Notes: generated by a model from the letters alone, not told the origin. Positions 26,377-57,647 are shown, counted from the stretch's first letter. The stretch: 64,000 bases of DNA from an uncultured Acidobacteriota bacterium (GCA_902826455.1 CADEEV010000001.1:298983-362982); one strand, 5' to 3'. Numbers and translations: made by a program.

Positions 26377-26646
26377 ATGTCTATTACCCCGCTAGAGGTT
26401 AAAGACACTACGCCCGGCGAACCCCAGCCGGGGGAGAAGCGCGTCCTCGCCGCGCTGCGTGGCCTCCGCTTCGGCTCGGTCGAAGTGGTGGTCCACGACG
26501 GCCGCATCGTGCAGATCGAACGCCGCGAAAAGGTTCGCCTCGAAGACGCGGACCGCCGCTCGCCGGGCGACCGGAAGCGGGAACCGAACCACAACGGCCG
26601 GGCTGACCGGATCTCCGGAGGCGCCGTCCCGGAGACAGAAGAATGA
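26377..26646 (+). CDS. DUF2292 (YezD-like) small protein with a C-terminal extension
   Basis: Core LRGLRFGSVEVVVHDGRIVQIERREKVRL matches YezD/DUF2292. The stop overlaps the porin start (ATGA). Confidence 0.6.
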   Translation: MSITPLEVKDTTPGEPQPGEKRVLAALRGLRFGSVEVVVHDGRIVQIERREKVRLEDADRRSPGDRKREPNHNGRADRISGGAVPETEE

Positions 26647-27905
26647 AGACGTACACGACGTGGCTTGGCGCCGTTGCGGTCGGCTTCCTGCTGGCCAGCG
26701 GCACCGCCGGGGCTCAGGGCAAGCCAAAGGAAGAGGCGCCGAAGCCCGCGGGCGTCAAGGTCGCCGCCGGCTCGGACGGCTTCGCGTTCCAGTCCGAGAG
26801 CGGCGACTTCAAGGTCCAGATCCGTGGTCTCGTCCAGGCCGACGCCCGCTTCTACGCCTCGGACAAGGGCAAGCTGGGGACCGACACGTTCCTGCTCCGG
26901 CGCGCGCGGCCCATCGTCACCGGCTCGGCCGGCAAGTACTTCGAGTTCAACCTCACCCCCGACTTCGGCGGCGGCCAGGCCGTGATCCAGGACGCCTACG
27001 CGGACATCAAGTTCAACGCGGCCGCGCGCCTGCGCGCCGGCAAGTTCAAGCCGCCGATCGGCCTCGAGCATCTCCAGTCCGACCCGATCCTGCCCTTCGT
27101 GGAGCGCGCACTCGCCGCGAGCCTCGTCCCGAACCGCGACGTCGGGCTCCAGCTCTCGGGCGACCTGGGCGGCGGCGTCGTCTCCTACGCCGTGGGCGTC
27201 TTCAACGGCACGGCGGACGGGGGCAGCGTCGATCTCGACGTGAACGACGGCAAGGACGCGGTGGGCCGCTTGCTGTTCACGCCGTTCAAGAAGGGCCAGT
27301 CCCCCGCGAGCGGCCTGAGCTTCGGGATCGCGGGCTCGTCTGGCAAGCAGTCGGGCGCCCCGTCCGCGTATCGCACCGGCGGCCAGCTCTCGTTCTTCAG
27401 CTACGCCACGGGCGTCGTGGCCGAGGGCGATCGCAGCCGCCTCGCGCCTGAGCTCTCGTTCTTCCACGGGCCGGTCGCGATCATCGCGGAGTACGCCCGC
27501 TCGAAGGCCGGGATCAAGAAGACCGCCACCTCCGAGCGCCACTCGATCGAGGCCAGGGGCTGGCAGGCGACGGCGGGCTTCTTCCTCACGGGCGACACCG
27601 CGTCCTTCTCGAGCGTCAAGGTCAAGAAGCCCTTCGATCCGTCGAAGGGCCAGTGGGGCGGCTTCGAGCTCGTGGCCCGCGTCAACGCCCTCGAGATCGA
27701 CGACGACGCCTTCAGCCTGGGCCTCTCGGACATCACGAAGTCCGCGCGCAAGGCGACCGCCTGGGGCGTCGGATTCAACTGGTACGTCAACAACAACATC
27801 CGCCAGGCCATCTCGTACGAGCGGACCAGCTTCGATGGCGGCGCCGCCACGGGCGACCGGCCCGACGAGAACGCCCTCTTCATTCGCACCCAGCTTTCCT
27901 TCTAA
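26643..27905 (+). CDS. OprO/OprP-family anion-selective outer-membrane porin (in the sulfate-uptake operon)
   Basis: 420 aa; signal peptide; beta-barrel alternation; C-terminal F; family motifs shared with the oprP paralogue at 55042. Confidence 0.85.
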
Positions 27906-27927
27906 GGCTCGAAAGGAACCAAGGACC

Positions 27928-28935
27928 ATGAATTCGAATCGCAAGGCTTTCCTGGCCGTCGCGCTCGCCGTCGGCCTCGCACGCTCGGCATACGCCGCGG
28001 ACGCCACGCTCCTCAACGTCTCCTACGATCCCACCCGCGAGCTCTACTCGGAGTACAACGCCGCGTTCGCGAGGTACTGGCAGGGCAAGACCGGCAAGAC
28101 CGTGGAGATCCAGCAGTCCCACGGCGGCTCGGGCAAGCAGGCCCGCGCCGTGATCGACGGACTCGAAGCCGACGTCCTGACCCTCGCCCTCGCCTACGAC
28201 GTCGACGAGGTCGGCAAGAGCGGCCTGTTCGCCGCCGACTGGCAGAAGAAGCTCCCGAACAACAGCGCGCCCTACACCTCGACCATCGTGTTCCTCGTGC
28301 GCAAGGGCAACCCGAAGGGCATCAAGGACTGGAACGACCTCGTGAAGCCGGGCACCTCGGTCGTCACGCCCAACCCGAAGACCTCGGGCGGCGCTCGCTG
28401 GAACTATCTCGCGGCCTGGGGCTACGCGCTGCGTCAGCCCGGCGGCAACGAGCAGAAGGCCCGCGCGTTCGTCACGGCGCTCTTCAAGAACGTGCCGGTG
28501 CTGGACTCCGGCGCCCGCGGCTCGACGAACACGTTCGTGCAGCGCGGCATCGGCGACGTGCTGCTCGCGTGGGAGAACGAGGCCTACCTGTCGGTCAACG
28601 AGCTCGGCCCCGACAAGGTCGAGATCGTGACGCCGTCGGTGAGCATCCTGGCCGAGCCGCCCGTGGCGGTCGTGGACAAGGTCGTCGACAAGAAGGGCAC
28701 GCGCGCCGTGGCCCAGGCCTACCTCGAGTACCTGTACTCGCCCGAGGGCCAGGAGATCGCGGCCAGGCACTACTACCGCCCGCGCCTCGCGGCCGTGGCC
28801 CAGAAGTACGCGGGCCGCTTCGGCAAGGCGCCGCTGTTCACCATCGACGAGGTGTTCGGCGGCTGGGCGAAGGCCCAGAAGGCGCACTTCGACGACGGGG
28901 GAGTCTTCGACCAGATCTATCAGCCCTCGAAGTAA
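27928..28935 (+). CDS. sbp: Periplasmic sulfate/thiosulfate-binding protein
   Basis: Signal peptide; Sbp/CysP fold motifs ([29 protein letters not shown]). Start reassigned to MNSNRKAF. Confidence 0.9.
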
Positions 28936-28995
28936 ACGGAGAATCCGCAGGCTCTCGCGCCCGGCGGGCCTCGCGAAGCCTGCCGGGCCTCTTGT

Positions 28996-29853
28996 GTGTT
29001 GAGTGAGGTCACGGTCTTGTCCAGCGTCGTCCTGAAACGTCACAGCGTCCTCCCCGGCTTCGGGCTCACCGTGGGTTACACGCTGCTCTACCTGAGCCTC
29101 ATCGTCCTGCTGCCGCTCTCGACCCTCGCGTTCAAGAGCAGCTCCCTGGGCTTCGACGCGTTCTGGACCACGGTCAGCTCGGCGCGCGTCGTCGCGTCCT
29201 ACAAGCTGACGTTCGGCGCGTCGCTGGCTGCGGCCACGATCAACGCCTTCTTCGGCTTGATCGTCGCCTGGGTGCTCGCGCGCTACACCTTCCCCGGGCG
29301 CCGCCTCGTCGACGCCATCGTGGACCTGCCCTTCGCGCTGCCCACGGCCGTTGCGGGCATCGCGCTCACCACCCTGTACTCGGAGAACGGCTGGCTGGGC
29401 GCGCCCCTCGCGAGGATGGGCGTCAAGGTGGCGTTCACGCCCCTGGGCATCACCCTGGCCCTGACCTTCATCGGCCTGCCCTTCGTGGTGCGCACGCTGC
29501 AGCCCGTCATCGACGAGCTCGATCCCGAGCTCGAGGAGGCCGCGGCCAGCCTCGGCGCCTCGCGGGCCCAGACGCTGTTCCGCGTCGTGCTCCCGGCGCT
29601 GCTGCCGGCCTGGCTCACGGGCTTCGCCCTCGCCTTCGCGCGCTGCCTCGGCGAGTACGGCTCCGTCGTCTTCATCGCCGGCAACATGCCCATGCGCACC
29701 GAGATCACGCCGCTCCTGATCATCACGAAGCTCGAGCAGTACGACTATCCGGGCGCAACGGCCATCGCGGTGGTGATGCTCGTGGCGTCGTTCGTGCTGC
29801 TGCTCGGCATCAACCTCCTGCAGTCCTGGAGCGGCCGGAGGCTCGCGGCATGA
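28996..29853 (+). CDS. cysT: Sulfate ABC transporter permease CysT
   Basis: 6 TM; EAA-loop region ([21 protein letters not shown]). Confidence 0.9.
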
Positions 29854-30701
29854 AGCGGCGTGTGCTGACGGAGCCGAAGCCCGTGCGCGTGGCCCTGATC
29901 CTCGTGTCCCTCGCGTTCCTCGCCGTGTCCCTCGTGCTGCCCCTGGCGCTGGTGTTCGTCGAGGCCTTCTCCAAGGGTGCTGCCGCCTACGCCGCGGCGA
30001 TCCGCGAGCCCATGGCCCTGTCGGCCCTGAGGCTCACGCTGCTGACGGCCGCGATCGCGGTGCCGGCGAACCTGGTCTTCGGTCTCGCCGCATCGTGGGC
30101 CATCGCGAAGTTCGACTTCTGGGGCAAGAACGCCCTCATCACCCTCATCGACCTGCCGTTCGCCGTCTCGCCCGTGATCTCCGGGATGATCTTCATCCTG
30201 CTGTTCGGGCGACTCGGGACGTTCGGGCCGTTCCTCCAGGGCCACGACATCAAGATCGTCTTCGCGATTCCCGGCATCGTGCTCGCCACGGTCTTCGTGA
30301 CGTTCCCCTTCGTGGCCCGCGAGCTCATCCCTGTGATGCAGGCGAGCGGGTCCGAGGAGGAGGAGGCGGCCCGCGTGCTGGGCGCCAGCGGCTGGCAGCT
30401 GTTCTGGCGCGTCACGCTGCCCAACGTGAAGTGGGGGCTGCTCTACGGCGTGATCCTGTGCAACGCCCGGGCGATGGGCGAGTTCGGCGCGGTCTCCGTC
30501 GTGTCCGGCCACATCCGCGGCAAGACCAACACGCTGCCGCTCCACGTCGAGATCCTCTACAACGAATACCAGTTCCAGGCCGCCTTCGCGGCCGCGTCGC
30601 TCCTGGCGTTCCTGGCCCTCGTCACGCTGCTGGCCAAGAGCTTCATCGAGTGGCAGACCGGCCGGCGCGCGAGCGCCGGCTCCGTGGAGAACGAAGCATG
30701 A
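29850..30701 (+). CDS. cysW: Sulfate ABC transporter permease CysW
   Basis: 6 TM; EAA loop ([21 protein letters not shown]); ATGA-coupled to cysA. Confidence 0.9.
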
Positions 30702-31678
30702 GCATCGAAGCCCGCAACGTCACGAAGCGATTCGGCAGCTTCGTGGCCGTCGACGACGTGAGCCTCGTGTTTCCCGGGGGCGAGCTGACGGCGCTGCTCG
30801 GCCCGTCGGGCTCCGGCAAGACCAGCCTGCTGCGCATCATCGCAGGCCTCGAGCGCGCGGACGCCGGCCAGGTCCTCTTCGAGGGCGAGGACGCCACCGG
30901 GCGCGACGTGCGCCAGCGCGGCGTCGGCTTCGTGTTCCAGCACTACGCCCTGTTCCGGCACATGACGGTCTTCGACAACATCGCGTTCGGCCTGCGCGTG
31001 CGGCCGCGGGCACGCCGTCCCGGCGCCCCCGAGATCCGCGCGAAGGTCATGGACCTCTTGAAGCTGGTCCAGCTCGACTGGCTCGCGAACCGCTACCCGA
31101 GCGAGCTCTCGGGCGGACAGCGCCAGCGCGTGGCGCTCGCGCGCGCCCTGGCCGTCGAGCCCAAGCTTCTCCTGCTCGACGAGCCCTTCGGGTCCCTCGA
31201 CGCCAAGGTGCGCCTCGAGCTGCGGCGCTGGCTGCGCCGGCTCCACGACGAGATCAAGCTGACGAGCGTGTTCGTGACCCACGACCAGGAGGAGGCCCTC
31301 GAGGTGTCCGACCGTGTCGTCGTGATGAACAAGGGCCACGTCGAACAGGTCGGCTCGCCGCAGGAGGTCTTCGACCAGCCGAAGACCTCCTTCGTCATGA
31401 ATTTCCTCGGCCAGGTGAACGCCGTGAAGGGCGGCTACGTGCGGCCCCACGAGTTCGAGCTGGCGCGCTCGGCCGACGCGCCCGAGGGCTCGTGGGCCGA
31501 GGTCCGCCACATCCACATGGCGGGCGCCGTCGTGAAGCTCGAGCTCGTCGACGAGGCGAAGAACGTGCTGCTCGTCGAGATGAGCCGCGACCGCGCCGAC
31601 GCCCTCGCGCCCCGGGTCGGCGAGCGGCTGTTCGCGTGGCCGCGGCGGCTGCGGAGCTTCGAGGCCGCGACCGTCTAG
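30698..31678 (+). CDS. cysA: Sulfate ABC transporter ATP-binding protein CysA
   Basis: Walker [24 protein letters not shown] signature, Walker B LLLDEP, and a C-terminal TOBE-like domain. Confidence 0.9.
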
Positions 31679-33313: not shown

Positions 33314-33709
33314 ATGACGAGACAGAACTTCGCTACCGGCACTCCCTGGGAGCCCATCGTGGGCTACTCGCGCGCCGTGCGCGTGGGCAACGTCGTGCAC
33401 GTGGCCGGCACGACCGCCACCGCCGAGGACGGGACGATCGTGGGTATCGGGGATGCCTACGCCCAGGCCATCCAGGTCCTGAAGAACATCGACAGCGCCT
33501 TGAAGCGCGCCGGAGCCCGGCTCGAGGACGTGGTCCGGACCCGCATGTTCGTCGTGAACATCGCGGCCGACTGGGAGAAGGTGGGCCGGGCCCACGGCGA
33601 GTACTTCAGCGCCATCCGGCCCGTCACGAGCATGCTCGAAGTCAAGGGTTTGATCTCGCCGGAGATCCTCGTGGAGATCGAGGCCGAGGCGATCGTCGTC
33701 TCCGACTAG
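33314..33709 (+). CDS. ridA: RidA (YjgF/TdcF) reactive enamine/imine deaminase
   Basis: 131 aa; RidA family signature (PAR...VEIEA region, conserved Arg). Confidence 0.9.
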
Positions 33710-33823: not shown

Positions 33824-34297
33824 ATGGCAACACTCTGCGCCAACCCCTGGGCGCGCCTCAGGTCTCCCTTCGACGTCGCCGCCGGAGTCCTGGGGGGCCG
33901 ATTGACGGCCCCGATCCTCTGGACCTTGTTCTGGGGTGGTAAACGGTTCTTCCAGATCCTCCGGGATCTGCAGCAGGTCCCCCGTCGCACGCTGGCGGAA
34001 CGCCTCCTCGAGCTCGAGAACGTCGGGCTCGTCGAGCGCCGCTTCGGACGTCTCGACAAGGACGGCGTCGAGTACGCGCTGACCGAGCTGGGTGAGTCGC
34101 TGAAGCCCATCCTCGCGGGCATGTACCACTGGGGACTGACGACGGCGGTTCGGGCCGATGCGGCCCGCCTCTTGACCGCCTGTGAACCGACCCGAGGTCC
34201 GAGAGCCGAGCACACCCGGCCCGACGAGGCTTGCGCCTCGCTCGAGGCTGCTGGCCGGGTCCCGTCGCCGTTCCCGGTGATCGAGACCCACGACTGA
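33824..34297 (+). CDS. HxlR-family wHTH transcriptional regulator
   Basis: C-x..GG.W...ILW.L motif (GGRLTAPILWTLFWGGKRFFQILRDL). Confidence 0.75.
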   Translation: MATLCANPWARLRSPFDVAAGVLGGRLTAPILWTLFWGGKRFFQILRDLQQVPRRTLAERLLELENVGLVERRFGRLDKDGVEYALTELGESLKPILAGMYHWGLTTAVRADAARLLTACEPTRGPRAEHTRPDEACASLEAAGRVPSPFPVIETHD

Positions 34298-34323: not shown

Positions 34324-37182
34324 ATGACCAAGAGATTCGGGCCCATCCTGGCCCTGTTGCTGGCCCTCGCGCCGGCGGCCTTCGCGCAGTCGACAGGCAA
34401 CATCTACGGCGCCGTCAACGACGAACAGGGCGCCACCATGCCCGGCGCCAGCATCACGCTCTCGGGCGAGAACATCGCCACCCGCAGCGTCGTCAGCGGT
34501 ACTCAGGGCGAGTTCCGTTTCATCGGCCTCGATCCCGGTACGTACCGTCTCGCCGTCGCCCTCGCCGGCTTCGGCACCGTCAACCGCGACATCGTGGTGA
34601 ACGCCGGCAGCAGCGTCACGCTGTCCTTCCCGCTCAAGGTGGCGACGGTCCAGGAGACCGTCACCGTCACCGCCGAGACCCCGGTCCTCGATCCCAAGAA
34701 GACCGGGACCTCGACGACGCTCTCGCGCGAGGAGCTCGCGCAGATTCCCAACTCCCGCGACCCCTGGGCCGTGCTGCGCACCGTTCCCGGCGTGCTCGTG
34801 GACCGCGTCAACACGGCCGGCACCGAGAGCGGCCAGCAGTCGGGCTTCGTGGGCAAGGGCTCGGTGCAGCAGGACGCCATGTGGACGCTGGACGGCGTCA
34901 CGATCAGCGACCCCGGCGCCGCGGGCTCGAGCCCGACCTACTTCGACTTCGACGCCTTCGACGAGGTGAACGTCACGACGGGCGGCGCCGACGTGCGCGT
35001 CGCCTCGGGCGGCGTCGGCCTCAACCTGATCACGAAGCGCGGCACGAACGCGTTCCACGGCGGAATCTCGGGCTTCTTCGCCCACGACAAGCTGCAGTCG
35101 TCCAACCTGCCCGAGGAGCTCGAGGGCGATGCGCGCCTCCTGGGCGGCGACAAGGCCGACCACGCCGACCAGATCTCCGACTACGGCTTCGACCTCGGCG
35201 GCCCGGTCATCAAGGACAAGATGTGGTTCTGGGGCTCTTACGGGAAGCAGGACCTGCGCATCCGCCGCCTCAACCAGGTCCCCGACAAGACGCTCCTCAA
35301 GAGCCTGTCCGCGAAGCTCAACTGGCAGGTCGCGGAGAACAACACGTTCTCGGTCTACTACTTCAACGGCGCCAAGGAGAAGTTCGGCCGGCCCGCGTCG
35401 GCGCTGTCCGAGGACGCCTCCCACAGCCGCGACCAGGGCAACGCCTATCCCGGCTGGCTCCACGGCTTCGTGAAGGTCGAGGACAACCACGTGCTGAGCT
35501 CGAACTTCATGATGAACCTCAAGTACGCGTACTACGGCTCGGGCTTCAGCCTCGTGCCCCAGGGCGGGACCGACGGCGACGAGTTCCTCGACTCGGTCGC
35601 GGGCGTCGCCCGCGGCTCCTCGAACTTCTACCAGTCCCTGCGGCCGCAGCACACGGCCAACGCCGACTTCAGCTACTTCCGCGGCAAGCACGAGTTCAAG
35701 TTCGGCTTCGGGTACCGCCAGGCCTCGGTCAGCAGCACCACGGCTCCCTCGGGCAGCAAGGTGTCGGCCCAGGTGTCCCCGGTGCTCGGCCGCATCGCCG
35801 TCGTGCAGCGCGACCAGGTCACGGCCTACAGCGGCAAGTACCTGAGCGGCTACGTGGGCGACACGTTCACGACCGATCGCCTGACCCTGAACCTAGGCGT
35901 GCGCTACGACCGGCAGACCGCGAGCAACAAGCCCACGACGGCGATCGCCAACCCGCTGTTCCCGGGCGTGCTCCCGGATCTGACCTATGACGGCAACGGC
36001 ACGGGCATCGAGTGGAGCGACTTCTCGCCGCGCGGCTCGATCACCTACGCCCTCGACGAGGGCCGCAAGACCCTCGTGCGCGCCTCCGTGGCGCGCTTCG
36101 CCGGCCAGCTCGCGTTCTCCGACGCCTCCATGGACAACCCCATCGGCGGCATCGGCTCGCGCACCTACGGCTGGAGCGACCTGAACGGCGACAACTTCGT
36201 GCAGGGCGGCGAGGTGGACCTGTCGGAGGAGCTGGCGCTGCCGGTCAACGCCGAGCTGTTCTCGGTCAACCGCATCGACCCCGACTACAAGGCCACCCAC
36301 GACACGGAGTTCATCGTCGGCCTGGATCGTGAGCTGGCGCCCAACTTCGCGCTCTCCCTCGCGTACACCTACCGCAAGTCCACGAACCAGATCTACGCGC
36401 CGTTCATCGGCCTCTCCAGCAGCGACTGGGTGCCGATCGCCCCGACGTCCGCGAACGGCTACACCGCGACCGGCTTCGACCTGACGCCCGAGGCCTACGC
36501 GCGCCTCCAGGCCAACGACTTCGGACGCATCCTCAAGAACCGTCCCGGCTACTCGCGCAGCTTCAAGGGCGCCGAGGCCACGCTGCTCAAGCGCCTCTCC
36601 AACAAGTGGATGGCGCGCGCGTCGTTCTCGTACAACGACTGGCAGCAGCACTACGACGGCACCGAGGGCCTCTTCAATCCGAACGCCGCGGTCTACGACA
36701 GCTACGGGCTCTCGCCCGTGGGCCAGACGATCGCCTCGGACACGGGCATCGACGGCGACCAGATCGCGATCTACAGCTCGGGCTCGGGGACGTTCTACTG
36801 GGTCAACGGCAAGTGGCAGATGTCCGCCACGGCGCTCTACCAGCTCCCTGCCGGCTTCGAGGTGGCGGCGAACCTGTTCGGCCGCCAGGGCTACGCGCGG
36901 CCGATCAACCTGACCCTCGACAACACGTTCTTCGACACGGTGCTGGCCCAGGGCCGGATCGACTCCAAGCGTCTCGACAACGTGTGGAACCTCGACCTGC
37001 GCCTCAACAAGAACTTCAAGTTCGGAAGCCGCGTGGGGGCCTCGCTCATGGCCGACGTGTTCAACGTCTTCAACGCGAACACGGTGCTGCGTCGCACGGA
37101 CAACGCGGACGGCCGCATCGACCGCGTGCAGCAGATCATGAACCCCCGCATCGCACGCCTCGGCCTGAAGCTGACGTTCTAG
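34324..37182 (+). CDS. TonB-dependent receptor-like outer-membrane protein with an N-terminal CarboxypepD_reg domain
   Basis: Signal peptide, then a CarboxypepD_reg domain (GNIYGAVNDEQGATMPGASITLSG...TQGEFRFIGLDPGTYRL). Plug and barrel motifs follow; the protein ends in the C-terminal Phe-type residue F. Start at ATG 34324 within the 983 aa track ORF. Confidence 0.8.
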   Translation: MTKRFGPILALLLALAPAAFAQSTGNIYGAVNDEQGATMPGASITLSGENIATRSVVSGTQGEFRFIGLDPGTYRLAVALAGFGTVNRDIVVNAGSSVTLSFPLKVATVQETVTVTAETPVLDPKKTGTSTTLSREELAQIPNSRDPWAVLRTVPGVLVDRVNTAGTESGQQSGFVGKGSVQQDAMWTLDGVTISDPGAAGSSPTYFDFDAFDEVNVTTGGADVRVASGGVGLNLITKRGTNAFHGGISGFFAHDKLQSSNLPEELEGDARLLGGDKADHADQISDYGFDLGGPVIKDKMWFWGSYGKQDLRIRRLNQVPDKTLLKSLSAKLNWQVAENNTFSVYYFNGAKEKFGRPASALSEDASHSRDQGNAYPGWLHGFVKVEDNHVLSSNFMMNLKYAYYGSGFSLVPQGGTDGDEFLDSVAGVARGSSNFYQSLRPQHTANADFSYFRGKHEFKFGFGYRQASVSSTTAPSGSKVSAQVSPVLGRIAVVQRDQVTAYSGKYLSGYVGDTFTTDRLTLNLGVRYDRQTASNKPTTAIANPLFPGVLPDLTYDGNGTGIEWSDFSPRGSITYALDEGRKTLVRASVARFAGQLAFSDASMDNPIGGIGSRTYGWSDLNGDNFVQGGEVDLSEELALPVNAELFSVNRIDPDYKATHDTEFIVGLDRELAPNFALSLAYTYRKSTNQIYAPFIGLSSSDWVPIAPTSANGYTATGFDLTPEAYARLQANDFGRILKNRPGYSRSFKGAEATLLKRLSNKWMARASFSYNDWQQHYDGTEGLFNPNAAVYDSYGLSPVGQTIASDTGIDGDQIAIYSSGSGTFYWVNGKWQMSATALYQLPAGFEVAANLFGRQGYARPINLTLDNTFFDTVLAQGRIDSKRLDNVWNLDLRLNKNFKFGSRVGASLMADVFNVFNANTVLRRTDNADGRIDRVQQIMNPRIARLGLKLTF

Positions 37183-37265
37183 GCCGAGTCCGTTCGTCCC
37201 CCTCGTCCGCGTGGTCCCGGCGCTCCGGCGCCGGGGCCGCGCTTTTCGGCTTCCGGAGGCGGCCC

Positions 37266-39317
37266 ATGAGACCTGCCCTCGTGCTCGCGCTGCTCGTGCT
37301 CGCGGGCTGCGCGCCGCAGCGCGCTCCGGCCCGGGGCCAGAACGTCCTCCTCGTCACGATCGACACGCTGCGCCACGACCGGCTCGGGTGCTACGGCGAC
37401 GCCCAGGCCCTGACGCCGGTCCTCGACCGGCTCGCTCGATCCGCGCGCCGCTTCGAGCGCGCCTACGCCCACAACGTCGTGACGCTCCCGTCTCACTGCA
37501 ACATCCTCTCGGGGCGCTATCCCGTCGCTCACGGCGTCCACGACAACGCCGGCGATCGCCTGCCGCGCGACGTCGAGACGCTCGCGACCCTCCTGAATAT
37601 GGCCGGCTATCGCACCGGCGCCTTCGTCAGCGCGTTCCCCCTGGACGCGCGTTTCGGCCTCGCCCGGGGCTTCGACGAGTACGACGACCGTCTCGGCTCG
37701 AGCGAGGCCGCGTTCCGCATCGCGGAGCGACCCGGGAGCGAGACGGTGGCGGCCGCGCGCCGCTTCGTCGCCGCGAACGCGTCGCCCTGGTTCGCCTGGG
37801 TCCACGTCTACGAGCCTCACGCGCCCTACGCGCCCCCGGCCCCGCTCGCGGCACGCTTCGCGTCCGACCCGTACCGTGGGGAGGTGGCGGCGGCCGACGC
37901 GGCCCTCGCCCCGCTCCTGAACCCGATCCTCGACCAGGGCGCCGCCGCCCGCACCGTCGTCATCGTCACCGCCGACCACGGCGAGGCGCTGGGCGAGCAC
38001 GGCGAGCGCACCCACGGCGTCTTCGCGTACGACGCGACGCTGCGCGTGCCGCTGCTCCTCTACGCGCCGGGCGTCGTCGCCGCGGGCGTCGACACGCGGC
38101 TCGCGCGGCACGTGGACCTGCTGCCGACCGTCGCCGACCTGCTCGGGCTCGCGACGCCCGCCGGCCTGCCGGGCCGATCCCTGCTGCGCAGCGTCCCGGC
38201 GGATCCCGACAGCTACTTCGAGGCGCTGACCGCCTCGCGCAACCGCGGCTGGGCGCCGCTCCACGGGCTCGTCGCCGGGGGCCTCAAGTACTTCGACCTT
38301 CCCGAGCGCGAGCTCTACGATCTGGCTCGCGACCCGGGCGAGACCGACAACCGGATCGCCTCCGGCGACGTGGAGCGGCTGCAGCAGCGCCTCGACCGGG
38401 AGCGGGCCGGCGAGCGCGCCGCGGAGCCGCAGGCCGAGTCGGTCGAGACGCGGGAGCGCCTGGCGAGCCTCGGCTACGTCGTGGCGCCGCGGGCGTCGAG
38501 TCCGGGCGCCCCCGACCCCAAGCGGATGATCTGGTTCGAGAGCGCACTCGACGCGGTGATCGAGCGCGAGCAGTCCGGAGACTCCCGCGGCGCGCTCGCC
38601 CTGGCGGAAGCGCTGCTCGCGCGGGCGCCGGCCACGCCGCTCGCCCTGCAGTACGCCGGCTACTTCCGCCGCGCCGACGGGGACCTCGCGGGAGCGGCGC
38701 GGGCCCTGGAGCAGGCCTTCGCCATGGCGCCCTCCGACCCCCAGATCGCGGCGCTCGCCGGCCAGTACCTCACGGAGGCGGGTCGCGCGGCTGAAGCCGC
38801 ACAGCTCCTAGAGCCTCTCGCCGCGCGCGCGGACCCCGACGTCGACGTCCTCGTCGCGCGCGGCGCTGCCCTGGCCCAGTCGGGGCAGCTCGACGCGGCG
38901 CTCGGGGAGCTCGGGCGGGCGCGGGACCTCGATCCCGAGAACGCCCTGGTCGTGGCGAACCAGGGCACGGCGCATCTCCTCGCCGGCGACCGAACCACGG
39001 CGCGCGCCGCGTTCGAGGAGGCCCTTCGCCTCGAGCCCGGGCTCGCCCGCGCGGAGAACGCGCTCGCGGTGATCGCGGCCGAGTCGGGCCGGACCGACGA
39101 AGCGGCGCAGCGCTGGGAACGCGCGCTGCGCTCTCACCCCGGGGACCTGGACATGCGGCTCAACCTGGCCCGGCTCCTCCTGGGGGAGGGCAGGCTGGAC
39201 GAGGCGCGTCCCCACCTGGAGCGCTTCCGGCGCGAGGCCCCGGCCGCCCTCTACGCCGCGGATCTGCGCCACGTCGACGCCTGGCTCCGATCGAAAGGCG
39301 GCGGCCATGGCCGCTGA
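37266..39317 (+). CDS. Sulfatase-family (alkaline-phosphatase superfamily) lipoprotein with a C-terminal TPR domain
   Basis: Lipobox LAGC; sulfatase-fold motifs (LLVTIDTLRHDRLG, VIVTADHGEALGEHGE). The active-site region reads TLPSHCNILSGRYP, with no C-x-P-x-R formylglycine motif. TPR repeats occupy the C-terminal 300 aa. Confidence 0.8.
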   Translation: MRPALVLALLVLAGCAPQRAPARGQNVLLVTIDTLRHDRLGCYGDAQALTPVLDRLARSARRFERAYAHNVVTLPSHCNILSGRYPVAHGVHDNAGDRLPRDVETLATLLNMAGYRTGAFVSAFPLDARFGLARGFDEYDDRLGSSEAAFRIAERPGSETVAAARRFVAANASPWFAWVHVYEPHAPYAPPAPLAARFASDPYRGEVAAADAALAPLLNPILDQGAAARTVVIVTADHGEALGEHGERTHGVFAYDATLRVPLLLYAPGVVAAGVDTRLARHVDLLPTVADLLGLATPAGLPGRSLLRSVPADPDSYFEALTASRNRGWAPLHGLVAGGLKYFDLPERELYDLARDPGETDNRIASGDVERLQQRLDRERAGERAAEPQAESVETRERLASLGYVVAPRASSPGAPDPKRMIWFESALDAVIEREQSGDSRGALALAEALLARAPATPLALQYAGYFRRADGDLAGAARALEQAFAMAPSDPQIAALAGQYLTEAGRAAEAAQLLEPLAARADPDVDVLVARGAALAQSGQLDAALGELGRARDLDPENALVVANQGTAHLLAGDRTTARAAFEEALRLEPGLARAENALAVIAAESGRTDEAAQRWERALRSHPGDLDMRLNLARLLLGEGRLDEARPHLERFRREAPAALYAADLRHVDAWLRSKGGGHGR

Positions 39318-41262
39318 GCGGACCCTGGCGGCGGCGGCCCTCGCCCTGGCGCTGGCCGGGTGCGACGTCGCACCGCGACCGTCTCCGCCGCCCGTCGTGC
39401 TCGTGACGATCGACACGCTGCGGGCGGACCGACTCCCGGCCTACGGTTACTCCGCCGTCTCGACGCCGGCCCTCGACGCCCTGCGCCGGGATGCGATCCA
39501 GTTCGACAACGCCTACAGCCACTGCCCGCTGACGTTGCCGTCCCACGCGTCGCTCTTCACGGGACTGCTGCCGCCCCAGCACGGCGTGCGGAGCAACATC
39601 GGGTATCGCCTCGAGCCGACGCACCGGACGATCGCCGCGGCGCTCTCGAAGCGCGGCTATGCCACCGGCGGCTTCGTGTCGTCGTACGTGCTGCGGGCCG
39701 CCACCGGGATCGCCGCCGGCTTCGACCGCTACGACGAGGTGCCGGCAGCCGCCACGACGGCGATCGGCGACGTGCAGCGGCCGGGCCGCGAGACCGTGGC
39801 GCGCGCCACCGAGTGGCTCGCGGGCGTCGGCGCCCGCCCGTTCTTCCTGTTCGTGCATCTCTACGAGCCCCACTCGCCGTACACGCCGCCGGAGCGGCTC
39901 CGCCTCCGCTACGGCGCGACGTACGACGGCGAGATCGCCGAGGCCGACGCGGCCTTCGGCGGCCTGATCGCGGCTCTCCAGGCGCGCGGGCTCTACGACG
40001 AGGCCCTGATCGTGGTCACGTCCGATCACGGCGAGGGGCTCTCGCAGCACGGGGAGGACGAGCACGGCATCCTGCTGTACCGCGAGGTCCTCCACGTGCC
40101 GCTGTTCGTGAAGCTGCCCGGCCGGGCGCGGGCCGGCGAGCGCGTCACGGCGCCGGTCGGGCTCGATCAGGTGTTTCCCACGCTCACCGCCGCCCGGGAG
40201 GCGTCGCTGCTGGGTGCGCTCCCCGAGCGTCCCATCTATTCCGAGACGTTCTATCCCCGCCTGCATCTCGGCTGGAGCGAGCTGCGGTCGCTCGTGGACG
40301 CGCGACGCCACTACATCAACGGCCCCCGTCCCGAGCTCTACGACCTCGAAGCGGATCCCGGCGAAACGAACGACGTCGCCCCCGGGGCGGGCGCGGCCGC
40401 GGCGTCGTATGGCGCGCGCCTGGCCACGATCGAGTCCCGTTTGGGCGCGCCAGGCAACGCCACGGACGAGGAACGCGAGCGGCTCGCGGCCCTGGGCTAC
40501 GTGGGGACGACCGTCGCCGTCGGTCAGGACGCCGTCCTTCCGAATCCCCGCGAGCGCCTGCGTGTGCGCGACCGGATGAAGAGCGCCCTCGTCCTGTCCC
40601 GCGCCGGTATGGACGAGCGCGCCGCGGCCGCGCTCCGGGGCGTGATGGTGAGCGAGCCAGGGTTCTTCGACGCCCATGTCGAGCTGGCCGCGGTCCTCGC
40701 GCGTCTCGAGCGTCCGGCCGAGGCGCTCGCGGAGTATCGCGCCGCCGCGGCGCTCTCGCCCGTGCTGGCGGGATCCCTCGCGCTGCCGATGGCGAGGCTG
40801 GCCATCGAAACACGCGATCTCGCGGAGGCCGAGAGGCTCGTGGCCGCGGCGCGCGCAGCCCCCGGCGCGGGGCCCGAGGTCCAGGTCGTGACAGGGGAGA
40901 TCCTGCTGGCGCGCGGGCGGCCACGGGAGGCCCTCGCAGTCGTGGGCCGGGACGCGCCGAAGGCGCCCGTCCCTGGCCTCGAGTTCGTGCGCGGCGACGC
41001 CCTCGCTCGCCTCGAGCGCACGGCCGAGGCGCGGCAGGCCCTCGCCGCGGAGGTCGCGGCCAATCCGGGCCACCTGCGCGCCTGGGCGAGCCTGGCGCTC
41101 GTCACGGCGCTCGAGACGCGCCAGCCCACGGACGCGTCGGCGGTGCTCGAGTCGATGTACCGCGCGAACCCGCGTCCGGCCACGGCGGCGCTCGCCGTGC
41201 GGACGCTGCGCTTCATGGGGGAAACGGCCGCAGCGGCGGCCTGGAAGGGGAGGCTCCACTAG
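39307..41262 (+). CDS. Second sulfatase-family TPR lipoprotein, a tandem paralogue
   Basis: Lipobox LAGC; the same architecture. The active-site region reads LTLPSHASLFTGLLP, again with no C-x-P-x-R. 11-nt overlap with the upstream paralogue. Confidence 0.8.
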   Translation: MAAERTLAAAALALALAGCDVAPRPSPPPVVLVTIDTLRADRLPAYGYSAVSTPALDALRRDAIQFDNAYSHCPLTLPSHASLFTGLLPPQHGVRSNIGYRLEPTHRTIAAALSKRGYATGGFVSSYVLRAATGIAAGFDRYDEVPAAATTAIGDVQRPGRETVARATEWLAGVGARPFFLFVHLYEPHSPYTPPERLRLRYGATYDGEIAEADAAFGGLIAALQARGLYDEALIVVTSDHGEGLSQHGEDEHGILLYREVLHVPLFVKLPGRARAGERVTAPVGLDQVFPTLTAAREASLLGALPERPIYSETFYPRLHLGWSELRSLVDARRHYINGPRPELYDLEADPGETNDVAPGAGAAAASYGARLATIESRLGAPGNATDEERERLAALGYVGTTVAVGQDAVLPNPRERLRVRDRMKSALVLSRAGMDERAAAALRGVMVSEPGFFDAHVELAAVLARLERPAEALAEYRAAAALSPVLAGSLALPMARLAIETRDLAEAERLVAAARAAPGAGPEVQVVTGEILLARGRPREALAVVGRDAPKAPVPGLEFVRGDALARLERTAEARQALAAEVAANPGHLRAWASLALVTALETRQPTDASAVLESMYRANPRPATAALAVRTLRFMGETAAAAAWKGRLH

Positions 41263-41263
41263 A

Positions 41264-43390
41264 ATGAAACCAGTGGAAGAACAGCCCGCACTCGCCGGCG
41301 CCGACGGCGTCCGGCGCGTGCGCTTCGGCATCTTCGAGATGGACTTCGCGAGCGGCGAGCTCCTGAAGGGCGGTCGGCTCGTGCGCCTGCCGCCCCAGCC
41401 GTTCCGCCTGCTCGAGATGCTGGTGCGCCGACCGGGGCAGGTCGTGACCCGGGAGGAGATCAAGGAGCAGCTCTGGAACGACGGCACGGTCGTCGACTTC
41501 GACCAGGGCCTGAACTCCTGCATCTACACGATTCGCGGCGTGCTCTCCGACGACGCCGAGGTGCCCCGCTACGTGGAGACCCTGCCGCGCCGCGGGTATC
41601 GCTGGGTCGGCCCGGTCGAGGCCGTCGCCGGCGCGCGGCCCTCGCTCCATCTGGTGACGCCCGGGGAGCCGGCACTGCGCATCGAGCCCGAGCCGCCCGT
41701 GACGCCGCCGTCCTTTCCTCGCGTGCCGGTCTCGCAGCGGGAGCGCTGGCTGGCGGCGCTCGTTCTCGTCACCGCCGGCACGGCCGCCTACGCCTGGTGG
41801 CCGCGCCCGGTCCCCGCCGTGTCCGAGCCGCGCTGGACGCGGGCGTCCTACGAGCGCGGGCTGGTGCGCGGCGCCCGCTTCGCGCCCGGCGGCGATCTCC
41901 TCGAGCTCGCGGCGTGGGGCGGCGGCGTCCCCCGCCTCCATCGCTCCCGGCCCCCGGCGCCCGGCACCGAGCCGGTCGAAGCCACGCTCACGCCGGTGTG
42001 GATCGCCGGCATCGGTCCCGACGGGGAGATCGCGTACGTCCGCACCCAGGCGAACGGCCCCCGCCAGCTGGTGCGTCAGTCCCGCAGCAGCGCGGCCAAG
42101 GTCGTCGCGGAGCGGATCACGGTCGCCGACTGGGACGGCAAGGACACCTTCGCGGCGATCCGTTTCACGGACCGGCCGCGCCTGGAGTTCCCCCTCGGCC
42201 AGGTCCTGGGCGGCGAGAGGCCCTACGTGTCGGACCTGCGCATCTCCCCCGACGGGCGCCACGTCGCGGCGATCGTCCAGGAGCGCACCAACGACGACGG
42301 CGGCCACGTGTCCGTCTTCGACCGCCGCGGTGCCGAGACCCGGATCCCCGGCGTGTTCGCGAGCATCGTGGGCCTCGCCTGGTCTCCTGCGGGCGAGGAG
42401 GTCTGGTTCACCGCCTCGGACCATGGCGCCGACCGCGCCTTGCTCGGCGCGCGCCTCGACGGGCGCATCCGCGTCATCCTCCCCGCCACCGAGCCCCTCG
42501 TCCTGCTCGACGTGGCGAGGGACGGGCGGGTGCTTCTCGACCGCGGAACCCAGCGACAGGGAGTCGTGGTCGGTGGGCCGGGCCTGACGGAGCGCGACGT
42601 GTCCATCTACGACTCGACCTTCGGCAGCGCGTTCTCGGCCGACGGCCGCCAGCTCGTGATGATCGAGAGCGGCGAGGCCGGCGGCGAGAACTACTCGACC
42701 TACGTGCGGGGCATCGACGGTTCTCCCGCGATCCGCGTGGGCCCGGGCGCGGGGCTCGACATCAGCCCCGACGGCCGGACGATCGTGTCGCTGCCGCCGC
42801 GACAGCCGGACCGCCTGCTCCTCCTGCCGGTGGGGCCGGGAGTCGTGAGGACCCTGAGCGATCCGCGCATCGAGGCTTACGAGTGGGCCGGCTTCCGCGA
42901 CGACGACACCCTGGTGTTCTCGGCGCGCGCCAAGGGTGCCGCGAAGCACGCGCTGTACCGCCAGGACTTCGACGCGCCCGAGGCGACCCTGGTGTCGGCG
43001 GGGTTCTCGAGCATCGACCGGGAGAGCGCGCTCACGGCCGACCGGCGCTTCATCTTCGGGTTCTGCGACGAGACCAAGGGCATCACGTGCCTCCAGCCCA
43101 CGGACGGCGGCGCGCCGCGCGAGGTCAAGATCCTCGACGACATGCTGCCCGTGTGGTGGCACCCGAGCGGCACCAAGGTCTACGCCCGCGGCTACGACCA
43201 GCCGCCGCTCCTGATCGAGGAGGTGGACCTCGAGCGCCAGACGAAGCGCCCGTTCCTCGTCCTGGCAGCCGCCGACCCCGCGGGCATCGGCTTCCTGTCG
43301 AACCCGATCGGCTCGCCGTCGACCGGACGCTACGCCTACACGTACACGCGCCGGCTGTCCGAGCTGTTCGTCGCCACCGGGCTGCGATGA
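41264..43390 (+). CDS. CadC/ToxR-like membrane-anchored transcriptional regulator (OmpR-type winged helix + TM + periplasmic TolB-like beta-propeller)
   Basis: Trans_reg_C domain (LLEMLVRRPGQVVTREEIKEQLW...TLPRRGYRW); one TM (WLAALVLVTAGTAAYAWW); WD40/TolB-like repeats C-terminally. Confidence 0.8.
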   Translation: MKPVEEQPALAGADGVRRVRFGIFEMDFASGELLKGGRLVRLPPQPFRLLEMLVRRPGQVVTREEIKEQLWNDGTVVDFDQGLNSCIYTIRGVLSDDAEVPRYVETLPRRGYRWVGPVEAVAGARPSLHLVTPGEPALRIEPEPPVTPPSFPRVPVSQRERWLAALVLVTAGTAAYAWWPRPVPAVSEPRWTRASYERGLVRGARFAPGGDLLELAAWGGGVPRLHRSRPPAPGTEPVEATLTPVWIAGIGPDGEIAYVRTQANGPRQLVRQSRSSAAKVVAERITVADWDGKDTFAAIRFTDRPRLEFPLGQVLGGERPYVSDLRISPDGRHVAAIVQERTNDDGGHVSVFDRRGAETRIPGVFASIVGLAWSPAGEEVWFTASDHGADRALLGARLDGRIRVILPATEPLVLLDVARDGRVLLDRGTQRQGVVVGGPGLTERDVSIYDSTFGSAFSADGRQLVMIESGEAGGENYSTYVRGIDGSPAIRVGPGAGLDISPDGRTIVSLPPRQPDRLLLLPVGPGVVRTLSDPRIEAYEWAGFRDDDTLVFSARAKGAAKHALYRQDFDAPEATLVSAGFSSIDRESALTADRRFIFGFCDETKGITCLQPTDGGAPREVKILDDMLPVWWHPSGTKVYARGYDQPPLLIEEVDLERQTKRPFLVLAAADPAGIGFLSNPIGSPSTGRYAYTYTRRLSELFVATGLR

Positions 43391-44580
43391 GCGCCCTGGC
43401 GCTCGTCGGGCTCGCGGCCGCCCTGGGGGCCGGCCAGGAGACGCCCACGTTCGAGGCGCGTGTGAGCCTGGTGACGGTGGACGCCGTCGTCGTCGGAGCC
43501 GACGGCGAGCCCATGGCCGGTCTTCCCCAGGGCGCGTTCCAGATCCTCGAGGACGGCGTCGCCCAGCCGGTCGTCAGCTTCAGCGCGATCGGTGGGGCGC
43601 CCATGGTCCGAGCCGAGGCCGTCGCGGTCCCCGGAGCGGCCGCGGCGGCGGCGCCAACCCCGGCGCGGACCTTCGCCCTGGTCTTCGACGACGAGCACCT
43701 GACGAAGCCCCAGGCCGAGCGCGTGAAGGCGGCGCTCGCGTCGTTCCTCACGAAGCACGCCGAGCCGGGGGACGTGATCGCGCTGTTCGCGCCCTCGAAC
43801 CAGGTGTCGCGGGTCACGCGCCTCCCCGAGGGCCGGACGGCGCTCCTGGCCCTCGTCGCGAAGCTGCGCGGCTTCGCGCGGCGCGAGGGCTCGCCGCCGC
43901 GCGTCTCCGAACAGGAGGCCTACGAGATGGAGGTGCACCGGGACCAGCGCGTCGAGGACGCCCTCGTCGTGCGGTTCCTGGCGTACGACGCGCAGCCGAG
44001 CGACAAGGACGTCGAAGGGGCCCGGCTCATGGTGCGGGCGCGCGCCGCGGAGGTTCACGCCTACGCGTCGCAGGCGCGGGCCGAGACCCTCGGGCTCCTG
44101 GAGCGCACGCTCGGCTGGCTCGGCTCGCTGCCGGGCCGCCGCGTCCTCGTCCTCGCGTCGGCCGGATTCGCGTACGACGAGACCGAGCAGCGCCTGCGGA
44201 GCCTCGCCGCGGCGTCGCTCCTGGCGAACGCGCCCATCCACCTGCTCGACGCGCGCGGCCTCGAGAGCGCCCACCCCTTCAAGGACGTCGAGTTCGAGGC
44301 CGGCTCGAGCGTCCGGGAATCGGCCACGAGCCTCGCCGAGCGCCTCTCCGCCGCGGCCGGGGCCGACAGCCTCGCCCTGGACAGCGGCGGCATCGTGGTG
44401 CGGAACGCGAACGACCTCGAGGCGGGCCTGCGGCGCGTGGCGGCGACGGCGCGCGTCTACTACCTGCTCGGATATCAGCCGCCGGCCGGAAGGAGAGAGG
44501 GCCGCTTCCGGAAGATCGAGGTACGGGTGAGCCTTCCCGGAGCGCGGGTGCGGGCGCGCCGCGGATACTTCGGCGGCTAG
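43387..44580 (+). CDS. VWFA-related (TIGR03436-type, Acidobacteria-typical) domain protein
   Basis: TFEARVSLVTVDAVVVGADGEPMAGLPQGAFQILEDGVAQPV matches the characteristic N-terminal motif. ATGA-coupled to the upstream regulator gene. Confidence 0.75.
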   Translation: MSALALVGLAAALGAGQETPTFEARVSLVTVDAVVVGADGEPMAGLPQGAFQILEDGVAQPVVSFSAIGGAPMVRAEAVAVPGAAAAAAPTPARTFALVFDDEHLTKPQAERVKAALASFLTKHAEPGDVIALFAPSNQVSRVTRLPEGRTALLALVAKLRGFARREGSPPRVSEQEAYEMEVHRDQRVEDALVVRFLAYDAQPSDKDVEGARLMVRARAAEVHAYASQARAETLGLLERTLGWLGSLPGRRVLVLASAGFAYDETEQRLRSLAAASLLANAPIHLLDARGLESAHPFKDVEFEAGSSVRESATSLAERLSAAAGADSLALDSGGIVVRNANDLEAGLRRVAATARVYYLLGYQPPAGRREGRFRKIEVRVSLPGARVRARRGYFGG

Positions 44581-44582
44581 CG

Positions 44583-45980
<1,398 letters not shown>

Positions 45981-51940: not shown

Positions 51941-52834
51941 ATGGAAGACGGCATGCGCTGCGACCTTCACGTCCACTCGCTGTGCTCGGGTCCGCTCGAG
52001 TGCTACTCGACACCGCGGGAGGTCTACGACACCGCGCGGGCCCGCGGCATGACCCTCGTGACCCTCACCGACCACGATTCCATCGAGGGCGCCCTGAGCC
52101 TCGCCCATCTCCGGGACTTCTTCGTGAGCGAGGAGGTGACCTGCCTCCTCCCCGGAGGCCGCCAGCTGCACCTCGGCGTCTTCGGGATCGACGAGGCGCG
52201 GCATGCCGCGATCCAGGAGCGGCGGAAGGACGCCGAGTCGCTGTTCGCCTACCTGGCGGAGGCGCGCATTCCCACGGCCGTCAACCACCTCTTCTCGGCC
52301 CTGACCGGCCGCAGGCGCCTCGCCGACTTCGAGCTGGCCCTGCGCCACGCGCGGCTGATCGAGACGCGCAACGGGATGATGCCCGAGAGCACCAACCACT
52401 TCGCGGCGCGAGTCGGTCGCCGGGCCCGGCTGCCCGGGGTGGGCGGCAGCGACGCCCACACGCTCGCGTCGGTGGCGCGCGCGTTCACTATCGTTCCCGG
52501 CGCCTCGGACCGCGACGGCTTTCTCGACGGCCTGCGGCGGGGCATGACGATCCCGGCCGGGGGCTCGGGCAGCTACGCCCGGCTCACCGCCGACGTGGCC
52601 CGGCTCTTCGCCGGCGGCTACGCCGAGAACGCGCGCCGCGCCCGCTCCGGCCTGGTTCCGGCCCTGCGCTTCACGGCCCTTCTCGCCGCGCTGCCGCTCC
52701 TGCCCCTGCTGCCGCTCATCACCGCCGGCATCTACGCCGACGAGGTCTTCTTCGGCGCGCGCCAACACCGGCTCTACGAAGCCGCCCAGGCGACGCTCGA
52801 CGCCGCCGCGCCGGGCGCCGTGGTGTCGCGATGA
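51941..52834 (+). CDS. PHP-domain metal-dependent phosphoesterase
   Basis: CDLHVHS...LTDHDS PHP motifs; 297 aa. Confidence 0.8.
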   Translation: MEDGMRCDLHVHSLCSGPLECYSTPREVYDTARARGMTLVTLTDHDSIEGALSLAHLRDFFVSEEVTCLLPGGRQLHLGVFGIDEARHAAIQERRKDAESLFAYLAEARIPTAVNHLFSALTGRRRLADFELALRHARLIETRNGMMPESTNHFAARVGRRARLPGVGGSDAHTLASVARAFTIVPGASDRDGFLDGLRRGMTIPAGGSGSYARLTADVARLFAGGYAENARRARSGLVPALRFTALLAALPLLPLLPLITAGIYADEVFFGARQHRLYEAAQATLDAAAPGAVVSR

Positions 52835-53373: not shown

Positions 53374-53388
53374 CCTAGACTCGGCGCC

Positions 53389-54699: not shown

Positions 54700-54960
54700 C
54701 GCGCCGGTCGTCCCCGCCGAGACCGGCCTCGGTGAGGATCTCGTCGATCACGGTGCGACCCGTATCGGCGCTTCCCGGCCCGAGGCGCATCCAGGCGGGA
54801 GGCCGTCCCGGCGGGGCGTGACGGCCACGCCGCCGCCGGGCGGCTCGTTGGCTGGCGAGACGTCCAAAGGGACGCTTCTGTCGAGACATGCTTGAGGGAA
54901 AGGTTAGGCCCGGGCCATGACGGTCGCGTGGCGCTCGCGCGATGGTCCGGCCACTCTTTC

Positions 54961-55000
54961 TTAACGTCCCGTTCACGCGTCCGTCACGCCGGCGTCACGC
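54961..55000 (+). promoter_or_regulatory. Pho-box-like direct repeat array upstream of oprP
   Basis: TTAACgtcccg-TTCACgcgtcc-GTCACgccggc-GTCACgc, four pentamer cores at exact 11-bp phasing, 40-80 nt upstream of the oprP ATG (55042), which has an AAGGAGG RBS. Confidence 0.45.
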
Positions 55001-55041
55001 ACCCCTCCTAAGTTGACGGCATCTCAAGGAGGCGTGTTTTG

Positions 55042-57637: not shown

Positions 57638-57647
57638 CTCTCCCTGT

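Follow-up and report, generated by a model that had tools for sequence, protein, structure and literature searches.

We analysed a stretch of 64,000 nucleotides (nt) from an uncultured Acidobacteriota bacterium (GCA_902826455.1, CADEEV010000001.1:298983-362982), referred to below as the window. At 34324-44580 it carries a co-directional series of genes for a TonB-dependent receptor (g1), two TPR-containing lipoproteins of the alkaline-phosphatase superfamily (g2 and g3), a membrane-spanning regulator (g4) and a VWFA-related protein (g5). Genes were called by third-position GC (GC3) frame analysis combined with Pfam and NCBIfam scans; the window has a G+C content of ~70%, and the raw lists of open reading frames (ORFs) were rich in shadow ORFs. 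The GC3-based gene caller was reliable on high-GC loci but not on Terriglobia loci of lower GC (419 genes in 80 loci). The loci of relatives with which the window was compared are labelled L001-L173. The comparison points to a receptor-lipoprotein core that recurs among these relatives, with changing accessories and regulators around it.

The gene content listed in an initial annotation of this DNA agreed in every material point with our domain scans and with the junctions (Table 1). The annotation had described six co-directional genes starting with the gene of an HxlR-family regulator. This series is real, but a RidA/L-PSP gene further upstream makes a seventh member. Read directly from the sequence, the HxlR and receptor genes are separated by 26 nt containing GGAG, and the receptor gene and g2 by 83 nt containing a GC hairpin and then TTTT. 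Genes g2 and g3 overlap by 11 nt, a single nucleotide lies between g3 and g4, and the ATG of g5 falls within the stop of g4, an ATGA overlap that had been noted correctly. Only 2 nt separate the stop of g5 from the stop of the convergent fumC gene, which is the downstream limit of the cluster and was used as a synteny anchor. A scan of the locus for sigma-70 promoters gave no match.

Table 1. Genes and features of the window, in order of position (positions counted from its first nucleotide).
Feature	Position	Strand	Evidence or detail
Porin_O_P gene and sulfate-type ABC transporter	26643-31675		
RidA/L-PSP gene	33314-33709	+	PF01042 98 bits
HxlR-family cytoplasmic regulator	33824-34297	+	PF01638 66.1 bits (cut-off 20.8)
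TonB-dependent receptor (g1)	34324-37182	+	CarboxypepD_reg 58.8, Plug 38.4, OMP_b-brl_4 136.7 bits
g1, CarboxypepD_reg extension	34402-34635		
g1, TonB-box-like ETVTVTA (residues 111-117)	34654-34674		Read from translation
g1, Plug	34702-35019		
g1, β-barrel	35302-37077		
Region folded as RNA	37180-37270		-53.1 kcal/mol, z = -3.05
Post-receptor hairpin	37209-37246	+	RNA fold
Lipoprotein g2	37266-39317	+	PF00884 138, PF01663 33.8 bits, many TPR matches, LAGC lipobox
g2, Thr73	37482-37484		Motif VVTLPSH
Lipoprotein g3	39307-41262	+	PF00884 139, PF01663 (Phosphodiest) 61.6 bits, TPR, LAGC lipobox
g3, N-terminus	39307-39370		Asp at +2 after the lipobox Cys
g3, Thr76	39532-39534		Motif PLTLPSH
Regulator g4, ToxR topology	41264-43390	+	Trans_reg_C 59 bits
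g4, OmpR-type winged helix-turn-helix	41315-41605		
g4, transmembrane helix	41735-41797		
g4, periplasmic tandem β-propellers	41831-43378		
VWFA protein g5, short-form TIGR03436	43387-44580	+	TIGR03436 180.9 bits (cut-off 81.25)
g5, degenerate metal-ion-dependent adhesion site	43684-43701		D-D-E-H-L
Fumarase C (fumC), convergent	44583-45980	-	Lyase_1 389 bits and FumaraseC_C
Phosphate-acquisition region, ~8 kb downstream	52831-63963		

Receptor orthologues (52-59% identity) adjoin one or two lipoprotein orthologues (46-57%) in L017, L018, L167, L168 and L169, and in L170, L171 and L173 a CarboxypepD_reg receptor has a more distant lipoprotein homologue beside it. For seven g3-anchored loci, similarity to g3 and the size of the available sequence were the only grounds of selection. 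A CarboxypepD_reg receptor lies at most two genes away in six of these seven, compared with an expectation of 0.70 (Poisson P ~9×10−5); the exception, L172, is fragmentary. The window, L167-L169 and L171 have the two genes co-directional, L133, L160 and L148 have them divergent, and L173 convergent. Since the orientations differ, inherited synteny alone does not explain the pairing. L008 and L012, otherwise syntenic with L017 and L018, lack the block. We conclude from these sequence comparisons that the conserved core consists of a TonB-dependent receptor with a CarboxypepD_reg extension and one or two putative phosphoesterase-TPR lipoproteins.

We also considered whether there is no functional module here at all, four abundant acidobacterial paralogue families having been juxtaposed by chance and compacted by genome streamlining. 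All families are very large, with at least 2050 matches for the regulator, at least 7380 for the lipoproteins and 15,531 cluster representatives for the TIGR03436-type VWFA family (50% identity, E≤1×10−3), and the block is variably present at syntenic sites (L003 versus the window; L008/L012 versus L017/L018). However, receptor and lipoprotein genes are adjacent in all assessable loci but L172, in at least four arrangements and far above background density, and the hairpin and the spacing between them are conserved. We consider chance juxtaposition very unlikely. Of the substrate-acquisition or adhesion system that had been suggested for the locus, the comparison supports a real module of structural genes that recurs in other loci, but not the partnership between VWFA protein and regulator that was part of the same suggestion and is treated below.

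A protein of ~303 amino acids with CarboxypepD_reg and TPR domains is a further recurrent accessory of the block. It is encoded at 15607-16515 of L017 (minus strand) and 13196-14110 of L168 (plus strand), the two being 47% identical, and has no counterpart in the window.

The lipoproteins g2 and g3 are paralogous, and each combines a sulfatase-fold domain of the alkaline-phosphatase superfamily with a C-terminal TPR domain. The sulfatase scaffold is their best match in both Pfam and the PDB, and PF00884, the family of the type I sulfatases, is matched by both. The formylglycine motif of these enzymes is not present. Aligned to choline sulfatase (7oz8), both proteins have Thr where the formylglycine would be and His in place of the motif Arg (T-L-P-S-H), which places Thr73 of g2 and Thr76 of g3 at the nucleophile position. 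T-[LF]-P-[SA]-H replaces C/S-x-P-x-R in 120/120 closest homologues, with Thr and His invariant, and the Thr motif was also found in metagenomic relatives. The motifs IDTLRAD and SDHGEGLGDHGE are conserved in the same 120 sequences; IDTLRAD and SDHGE, the conserved pair of metal-ligand type, are shared by the closest homologues. Both proteins score above the cut-off of 23 bits for PF01663, the family of the nucleotide pyrophosphatases/phosphodiesterases (NPPs), and the NPP structure 2gsn was matched at E 7.9×10−7. The PF01663 scores and the Thr in a T-x-P-x-H context assign g2 and g3, at the level of sequence, to the NPP family.

Because the formylglycine motif is replaced, sulfatase chemistry is not expected, and the predicted g2 and g3 products are not sulfatases: the name describes their fold, not their chemistry. 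Within the alkaline-phosphatase superfamily, Thr as nucleophile is a sign of phosphoryl, not sulfuryl, transfer. From this knowledge of the superfamily we infer that g2 and g3 are Thr-nucleophile phospho(di)esterases. A sulfate-ester link through the sulfate-type ATP-binding cassette (ABC) transporter encoded upstream was rejected because the formylglycine motif is absent from g2 and g3. In that upstream region a Porin_O_P gene precedes the transporter genes (SBP_bac_11, two permeases and an ATPase with TOBE_3), so that a phosphate-selective-type porin is paired with a sulfate importer.

Lipid anchoring of both proteins is predicted from their LAGC lipoboxes, with Cys15 in g2 (N-terminus MRPALVLALLVLAGC) and Cys19 in g3 (N-terminus ...ALALALAGC). 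A lipobox-like motif was present in 78 of the 120 closest homologues. The +2 residue after the lipobox Cys is Asp in g3 and Ala in g2, and mostly Gly in the homologues (51/78). Asp at +2 is an inner-membrane retention signal in E. coli. From their +2 residues, g2 and g3 might reside in different membranes.

The predicted receptor consists of a signal peptide, a CarboxypepD_reg extension, a TonB-box-like motif, a Plug and a β-barrel. By its Pfam matches and this motif it has the architecture of the Oar subclass as defined in PMC6434023. A sequence search of the PDB with g1 returned no significant match. Just 3′ of the receptor stop lies a hairpin with a GC-rich stem of 15 base pairs and the loop TCCG, followed by TTTT. 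Our terminator scan missed it, as the T-tract has only four T, and it was analysed by folding instead (Table 1). Equivalent strong GC hairpins follow the receptor stop in L017, L018, L167, L168, L169 and L171; their position is conserved, their stem sequence is not, and the hairpin of L171 ends in a canonical T7 tract. These hairpins resemble an intercistronic terminator or attenuator that has been conserved. The T-tract of the window is only 19 nt, GGAGG included, from the ATG of g2, and therefore g2-g5 must be transcribed by read-through. This need points to attenuation, by which receptor would be made in large excess over the downstream products. The post-receptor hairpin is likely to be a partial terminator or a stem that stabilizes the messenger RNA.

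The g5 protein matches positions 1-323 of the 324 positions of the TIGR03436 model. Its features are a weak signal peptide, a β-sandwich and a Rossmann-like VWA domain with a helical insertion. Its metal-ion-dependent adhesion site (MIDAS) is degenerate and reads D-D-E-H-L, not DxSxS. In the subfamily of g5 only the first MIDAS Asp is invariant; the canonical members P0141 and P0144 have DRSFS. The top structural neighbours include bacterial VWA adhesins and pilus tip proteins, and a sequence search of the PDB returned only two non-significant matches (E 0.14 and 0.67). As the initial annotation had said, the TIGR03436 family is abundant and its function is unassigned. The family size given above is in line with this, and the searchable literature had nothing on TIGR03436 and nothing useful on VWFA-related proteins of Acidobacteria.

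VWFA genes occur in three of the seven g3-anchored loci (L168, L170 and L173), compared with an expectation of 0.42 (P ~0.009). The arrangement closest to that of the window is found in L168, where an HxlR gene (50% identity) is followed by an HTH_8 gene and then by orthologues of the receptor (59%), g2 (57%) and g3 (53%) and by a VWFA gene, without a winged helix-turn-helix (wHTH) regulator. The VWFA start of L168 overlaps the lipoprotein stop (GTGA); the gene is split by frameshifts in the assembly, and both pieces match TIGR03436. In L173 a VWFA gene of 715 residues lies 38 nt from the lipoprotein gene and divergent from it, and in L170 it is the receptor gene from which the VWFA gene diverges. 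We also gathered 80 VWFA-anchored metagenome loci (L087-L166) with a five-sequence alignment. Receptors were found in 15/80 of these and TPR proteins in 21/80, and a Thr-type lipoprotein adjoins the VWFA gene in L110, L133, L148, L156 and L160. VWFA genes accompany the receptor-lipoprotein block in at least four arrangements (L168, L170, L173, L133, L160 and L148) and were not found in the core instances L017, L018, L167, L169 and L171. These gene neighbourhoods indicate that the predicted TIGR03436 VWFA protein is an accessory, recurrent but dispensable, of the core and not of the regulator.

Further contexts of VWFA genes emerged from the same comparison. Long-form TIGR03436 genes often form tandem pairs (23 of the 80 VWFA-anchored loci). 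In one recurrent context a small Rieske-type [2Fe-2S] protein is encoded immediately upstream, after an amino-acid permease and an aminotransferase; another consists of FG-GAP/UnbV_ASPIC and TPR proteins.

The regulator g4 has the topology of ToxR/CadC-like one-component regulators, with an N-terminal wHTH domain, a single transmembrane helix and a periplasmic C-terminal domain. Its AlphaFold model (mean predicted local distance difference test score, pLDDT, 84) comprises the wHTH at residues 18-114, a disordered linker, the transmembrane helix at 158-178 and an all-β part at 190-705 (~515 residues). Trans_reg_C was matched at residues 38-113. The best PDB matches in a Foldseek search were tandem propellers (LRP6 pairs, megalin and Tricorn) together with TolB. 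PD40 was matched by 18 of 27 members of the g4 family, with g4 itself below threshold. The best NCBIfam matches, to HilA/EilA and CadC, cover the wHTH only and are all far below their cut-offs; the CadC model NF007540 scores 41 bits against a cut-off of 400, and g4 is not a CadC equivalog. The label 'CadC-like' given to it earlier is thus apt for the topology, but neither for the CadC model score nor for the sensor, which is a tandem β-propeller.

The VWFA protein had been proposed as a co-sensor or ligand-binding partner of this regulator, which would control the module in cis. On such a model, analogous to ToxR/ToxS and TcpP/TcpH, translational coupling would match the amounts of the two proteins, and the pair would control the upstream envelope genes. 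Both the window and L006, a relative with a g4 89% identical, have the ATGA overlap. The Shine-Dalgarno sequence of g5 is weak, so that translation of g5 probably depends on g4, and both proteins are predicted to be exposed to the periplasm. However, the contexts of the g4 orthologues form a natural deletion series in which only the window and L006 have the pair. In L006 the order g3-g4-ATGA-g5 is kept, with g5 only 69% identical to that of the window compared with 89% for g4. In L004 and L005 (g4 84% identical), g3 and g4 are followed after 15 nt by fumC, and there is no VWFA gene. L003 (g4 48%) is syntenic on both sides, with genes for a Cys/Met pyridoxal-phosphate enzyme, DinB/MST, RidA (72% identical), HxlR, g4 and fumC, and is without the receptor, both lipoproteins and the VWFA gene. 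In L001 and L002 (g4 46-47%), g4 stands alone, again without a VWFA gene.

An alignment of L004 3915-4010 with window 43380-44590 showed that L004 retains CGATGAGCG at the g4 stop, from which 12 nt then lead to the fumC stop. In this comparison of g5 insertion versus deletion, only 3 nt extend beyond the sequence constrained by g4.

The co-occurrence check that had been suggested for the regulator-VWFA pair was run on the relatives' loci. Among 80 regulator-family loci taken from genomes, in which VWFA ORFs were scored with a home-made hidden Markov model (HMM), we found six VWFA ORFs, about the chance expectation at 4.3 per Mb, and no same-strand VWFA ORF abutting a regulator. Likewise, a g4-type regulator adjoins the VWFA gene in 0/80 of the VWFA-anchored metagenome loci. 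Proximity is thus at about the chance level, and g4 and g5 do not show the conserved partnership of the ToxR-ToxS type, the pair being missing in L001-L005. Lack of conservation of the two genes as neighbours, the outcome named in advance as refuting the proposal, is therefore what the loci show. In L168 the VWFA gene is coupled to a lipoprotein gene instead. The proposed signalling partnership is therefore not supported, and we regard it as very unlikely. In the lineage of the window the regulator gene sits between g3 and the VWFA gene, and the ATGA joins the VWFA gene to whichever gene precedes it. The coupling thus reflects operon packing and not a conserved sensing partner.

Of the regulators near the module HxlR recurs most consistently, flanking the block in six loci (the window, L017, L018, L167, L168 and L169). 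Regulators of the wHTH-propeller type stand beside the block in the window and the synteny group L017/L018/L167/L169 (P ~0.01, or 0.14 with the synteny group counted once). The regulators of the L017 type were rejected as orthologues of g4, as they form a different clade in a neighbour-joining tree. Since such regulators stand beside the block in two arrangements and are not orthologous, a real regulatory link between g4 and the module is plausible, if statistically weak. We conclude that HxlR and the wHTH/β-propeller regulator of ToxR topology are variable regulatory neighbours of the core.

A secreted protein of ~190-255 amino acids with the motif HEVVHA (HExxH) adjoins the wHTH-propeller regulators of the L017 clade, including L041, which is without the receptor block; it is absent from the window. 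It is encoded in L017 (12557-13114), L018 (12571-13152), L167 (11589-12356, minus strand), L169 (13645-14373, minus strand) and L041 (12979-13533, minus strand). No Pfam match is on record for this protein, and the member in L167 also had no NCBIfam match. As a conserved partner of the regulator it is a more promising candidate than the VWFA protein.

We propose that the locus is an outer-membrane module of an Acidobacteriota bacterium (probably of the Vicinamibacteria) for TonB-powered uptake of a phosphorylated substrate, with a VWFA accessory and variable regulators. We judge this reading about equally likely to be right or wrong. Transcription would start at or upstream of the HxlR gene, and the hairpin after the receptor gene would lower read-through and leave more receptor than downstream products. 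The receptor would use TonB energy to import a phosphorylated substrate too large for porins. The lipid-anchored lipoproteins, docked through their TPR domains, would split phospho(di)ester bonds, either in the periplasm or at the outer membrane. The VWFA protein, secreted and MIDAS-less, could act as a binding or scaffolding subunit of an envelope complex, and HxlR and g4 would tune expression.

The region ~8 kb downstream contains genes for a PAP2 phosphatase, a genuine NPP (PF01663, 162 bits), a second Porin_O_P, PstS, a PstC-like permease, a PstA-like permease (545 amino acids) and PstB. The PstC-like permease is oversized at 765 amino acids, and its N-terminal region has weak β-propeller matches. 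This pst/NPP/PAP2/phosphate-porin region lends weak support to a phosphorylated substrate. A literature search on TonB and phosphatases in Vicinamibacteria gave nothing useful.

Several points weigh against the proposed uptake module. In Myxococcus a receptor of this architecture exports a protein (Oar; PMC6434023), and the direction of transport may differ here. The neighbour statistics come from small samples, in which L017, L018, L167 and L169 form one synteny group, and the background density of VWFA genes was taken from partly different locus classes with a home-made HMM and could be too low. A plausible regulatory tie of g4 to the module, as discussed above, is a further point. The consistent regulator, HxlR, is of a redox/electrophile type, and no link of the module to PhoB or a Pho box was found.

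The main rival to uptake is Oar-like export or surface display. The receptor would then work outward and deliver the lipoproteins, the VWFA protein or both to the cell surface; there the enzymes would act on external substrates, and the VWA domain would serve in adhesion. The Oar-subclass architecture of g1 fits this explanation, as do the adhesins and pilus tip proteins among the structural neighbours of g5, and in assessable loci the receptor gene adjoins the gene of a lipoprotein that could be its cargo. However, characterized TonB-dependent transporters are mostly importers, and a degenerate MIDAS such as that of g5 is unusual for metal-dependent adhesins. Moreover, no TonB/ExbBD genes are adjacent, unlike at oar, and the VWFA gene is absent from the core in L017, L018, L167, L169 and L171. 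We regard export as unlikely, though as a possibility to be taken seriously.

A more specific and rather doubtful version of the module is an acidobacterial receptor-lipoprotein 'utilisome'. Receptor and lipoprotein would form a stable outer-membrane complex in which the TPR domain is a lid or adaptor, the Thr-type domain processes the cargo and the VWFA protein is an optional capture subunit; alternatively, the complex would work outward as Oar does. Acidobacteriota are not known to have SusD. If true, the utilisome would give a first role to two large uncharacterized families, with at least 7,000 lipoprotein relatives and ~15,000 VWFA representatives. Few envelope families of soil Acidobacteriota are as expanded and as little understood as the CarboxypepD_reg receptors, the sulfatase-fold/TPR lipoproteins and the TIGR03436 proteins. 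The locus itself is a real but fairly ordinary-looking envelope module of uncharacterized families. What our comparison adds is a conserved pair of receptor and Thr-type lipoprotein, a link of the VWFA protein to this pair and a correction of the 'sulfatase' label, which is likely to be a mis-annotation. Acquisition of organic phosphorus or of other macromolecules by abundant soil bacteria is offered as a hypothesis.

Among known systems, the SusC/SusD loci of Bacteroidota serve the capture, processing and import of large substrates (PMC11658791). They share with the window a transporter with a CarboxypepD_reg-like extension, followed by the gene of a helical-repeat lipoprotein, as well as enzymes and a membrane-spanning regulator. 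However, g1 scores 17.8 bits with TIGR04056 (SusC/RagA), compared with a cut-off of 368.25, and is not a member of that family. The Pfam scan gave no SusD-family match in g2 or g3, and there are no glycoside hydrolases. The partner lipoprotein of the window is instead itself an enzyme of the alkaline-phosphatase superfamily fused to TPR.

In Myxococcus xanthus, Oar secretes PopC (PMC6434023; PMC11658791). Oar and g1, likened here by domain architecture alone, share the CarboxypepD_reg extension, the TonB box, the Plug and a 22-strand-type barrel (PMC6434023). The window differs in having neither a PopC-like protease nor TonB/ExbBD genes next to the receptor. The Bat proteins (BatA-E) of Bacteroides are VWA/TPR envelope proteins, but the window is without MoxR ATPase or DUF58 genes, and the MIDAS of g5 is degenerate, with an N-terminal β-sandwich and a helical insertion also present in the protein.

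With ToxR/ToxS, TcpP/TcpH and CadC, g4 shares a cytoplasmic OmpR-type wHTH, one transmembrane helix and a periplasmic sensor; it differs in that the sensor is a tandem PD40-type β-propeller and the downstream gene is not a conserved partner. Finally, type I sulfatases and NPPs share with g2 and g3 the sulfatase scaffold, the matches to PF01663 and 2gsn and the metal-ligand-type motifs. In contrast to type I sulfatases, g2 and g3 have T-L-P-S-H, and all 120 closest homologues T-[LF]-P-[SA]-H, in place of C/S-x-P-x-R, and in contrast to NPPs they are predicted lipoproteins with a C-terminal TPR domain.

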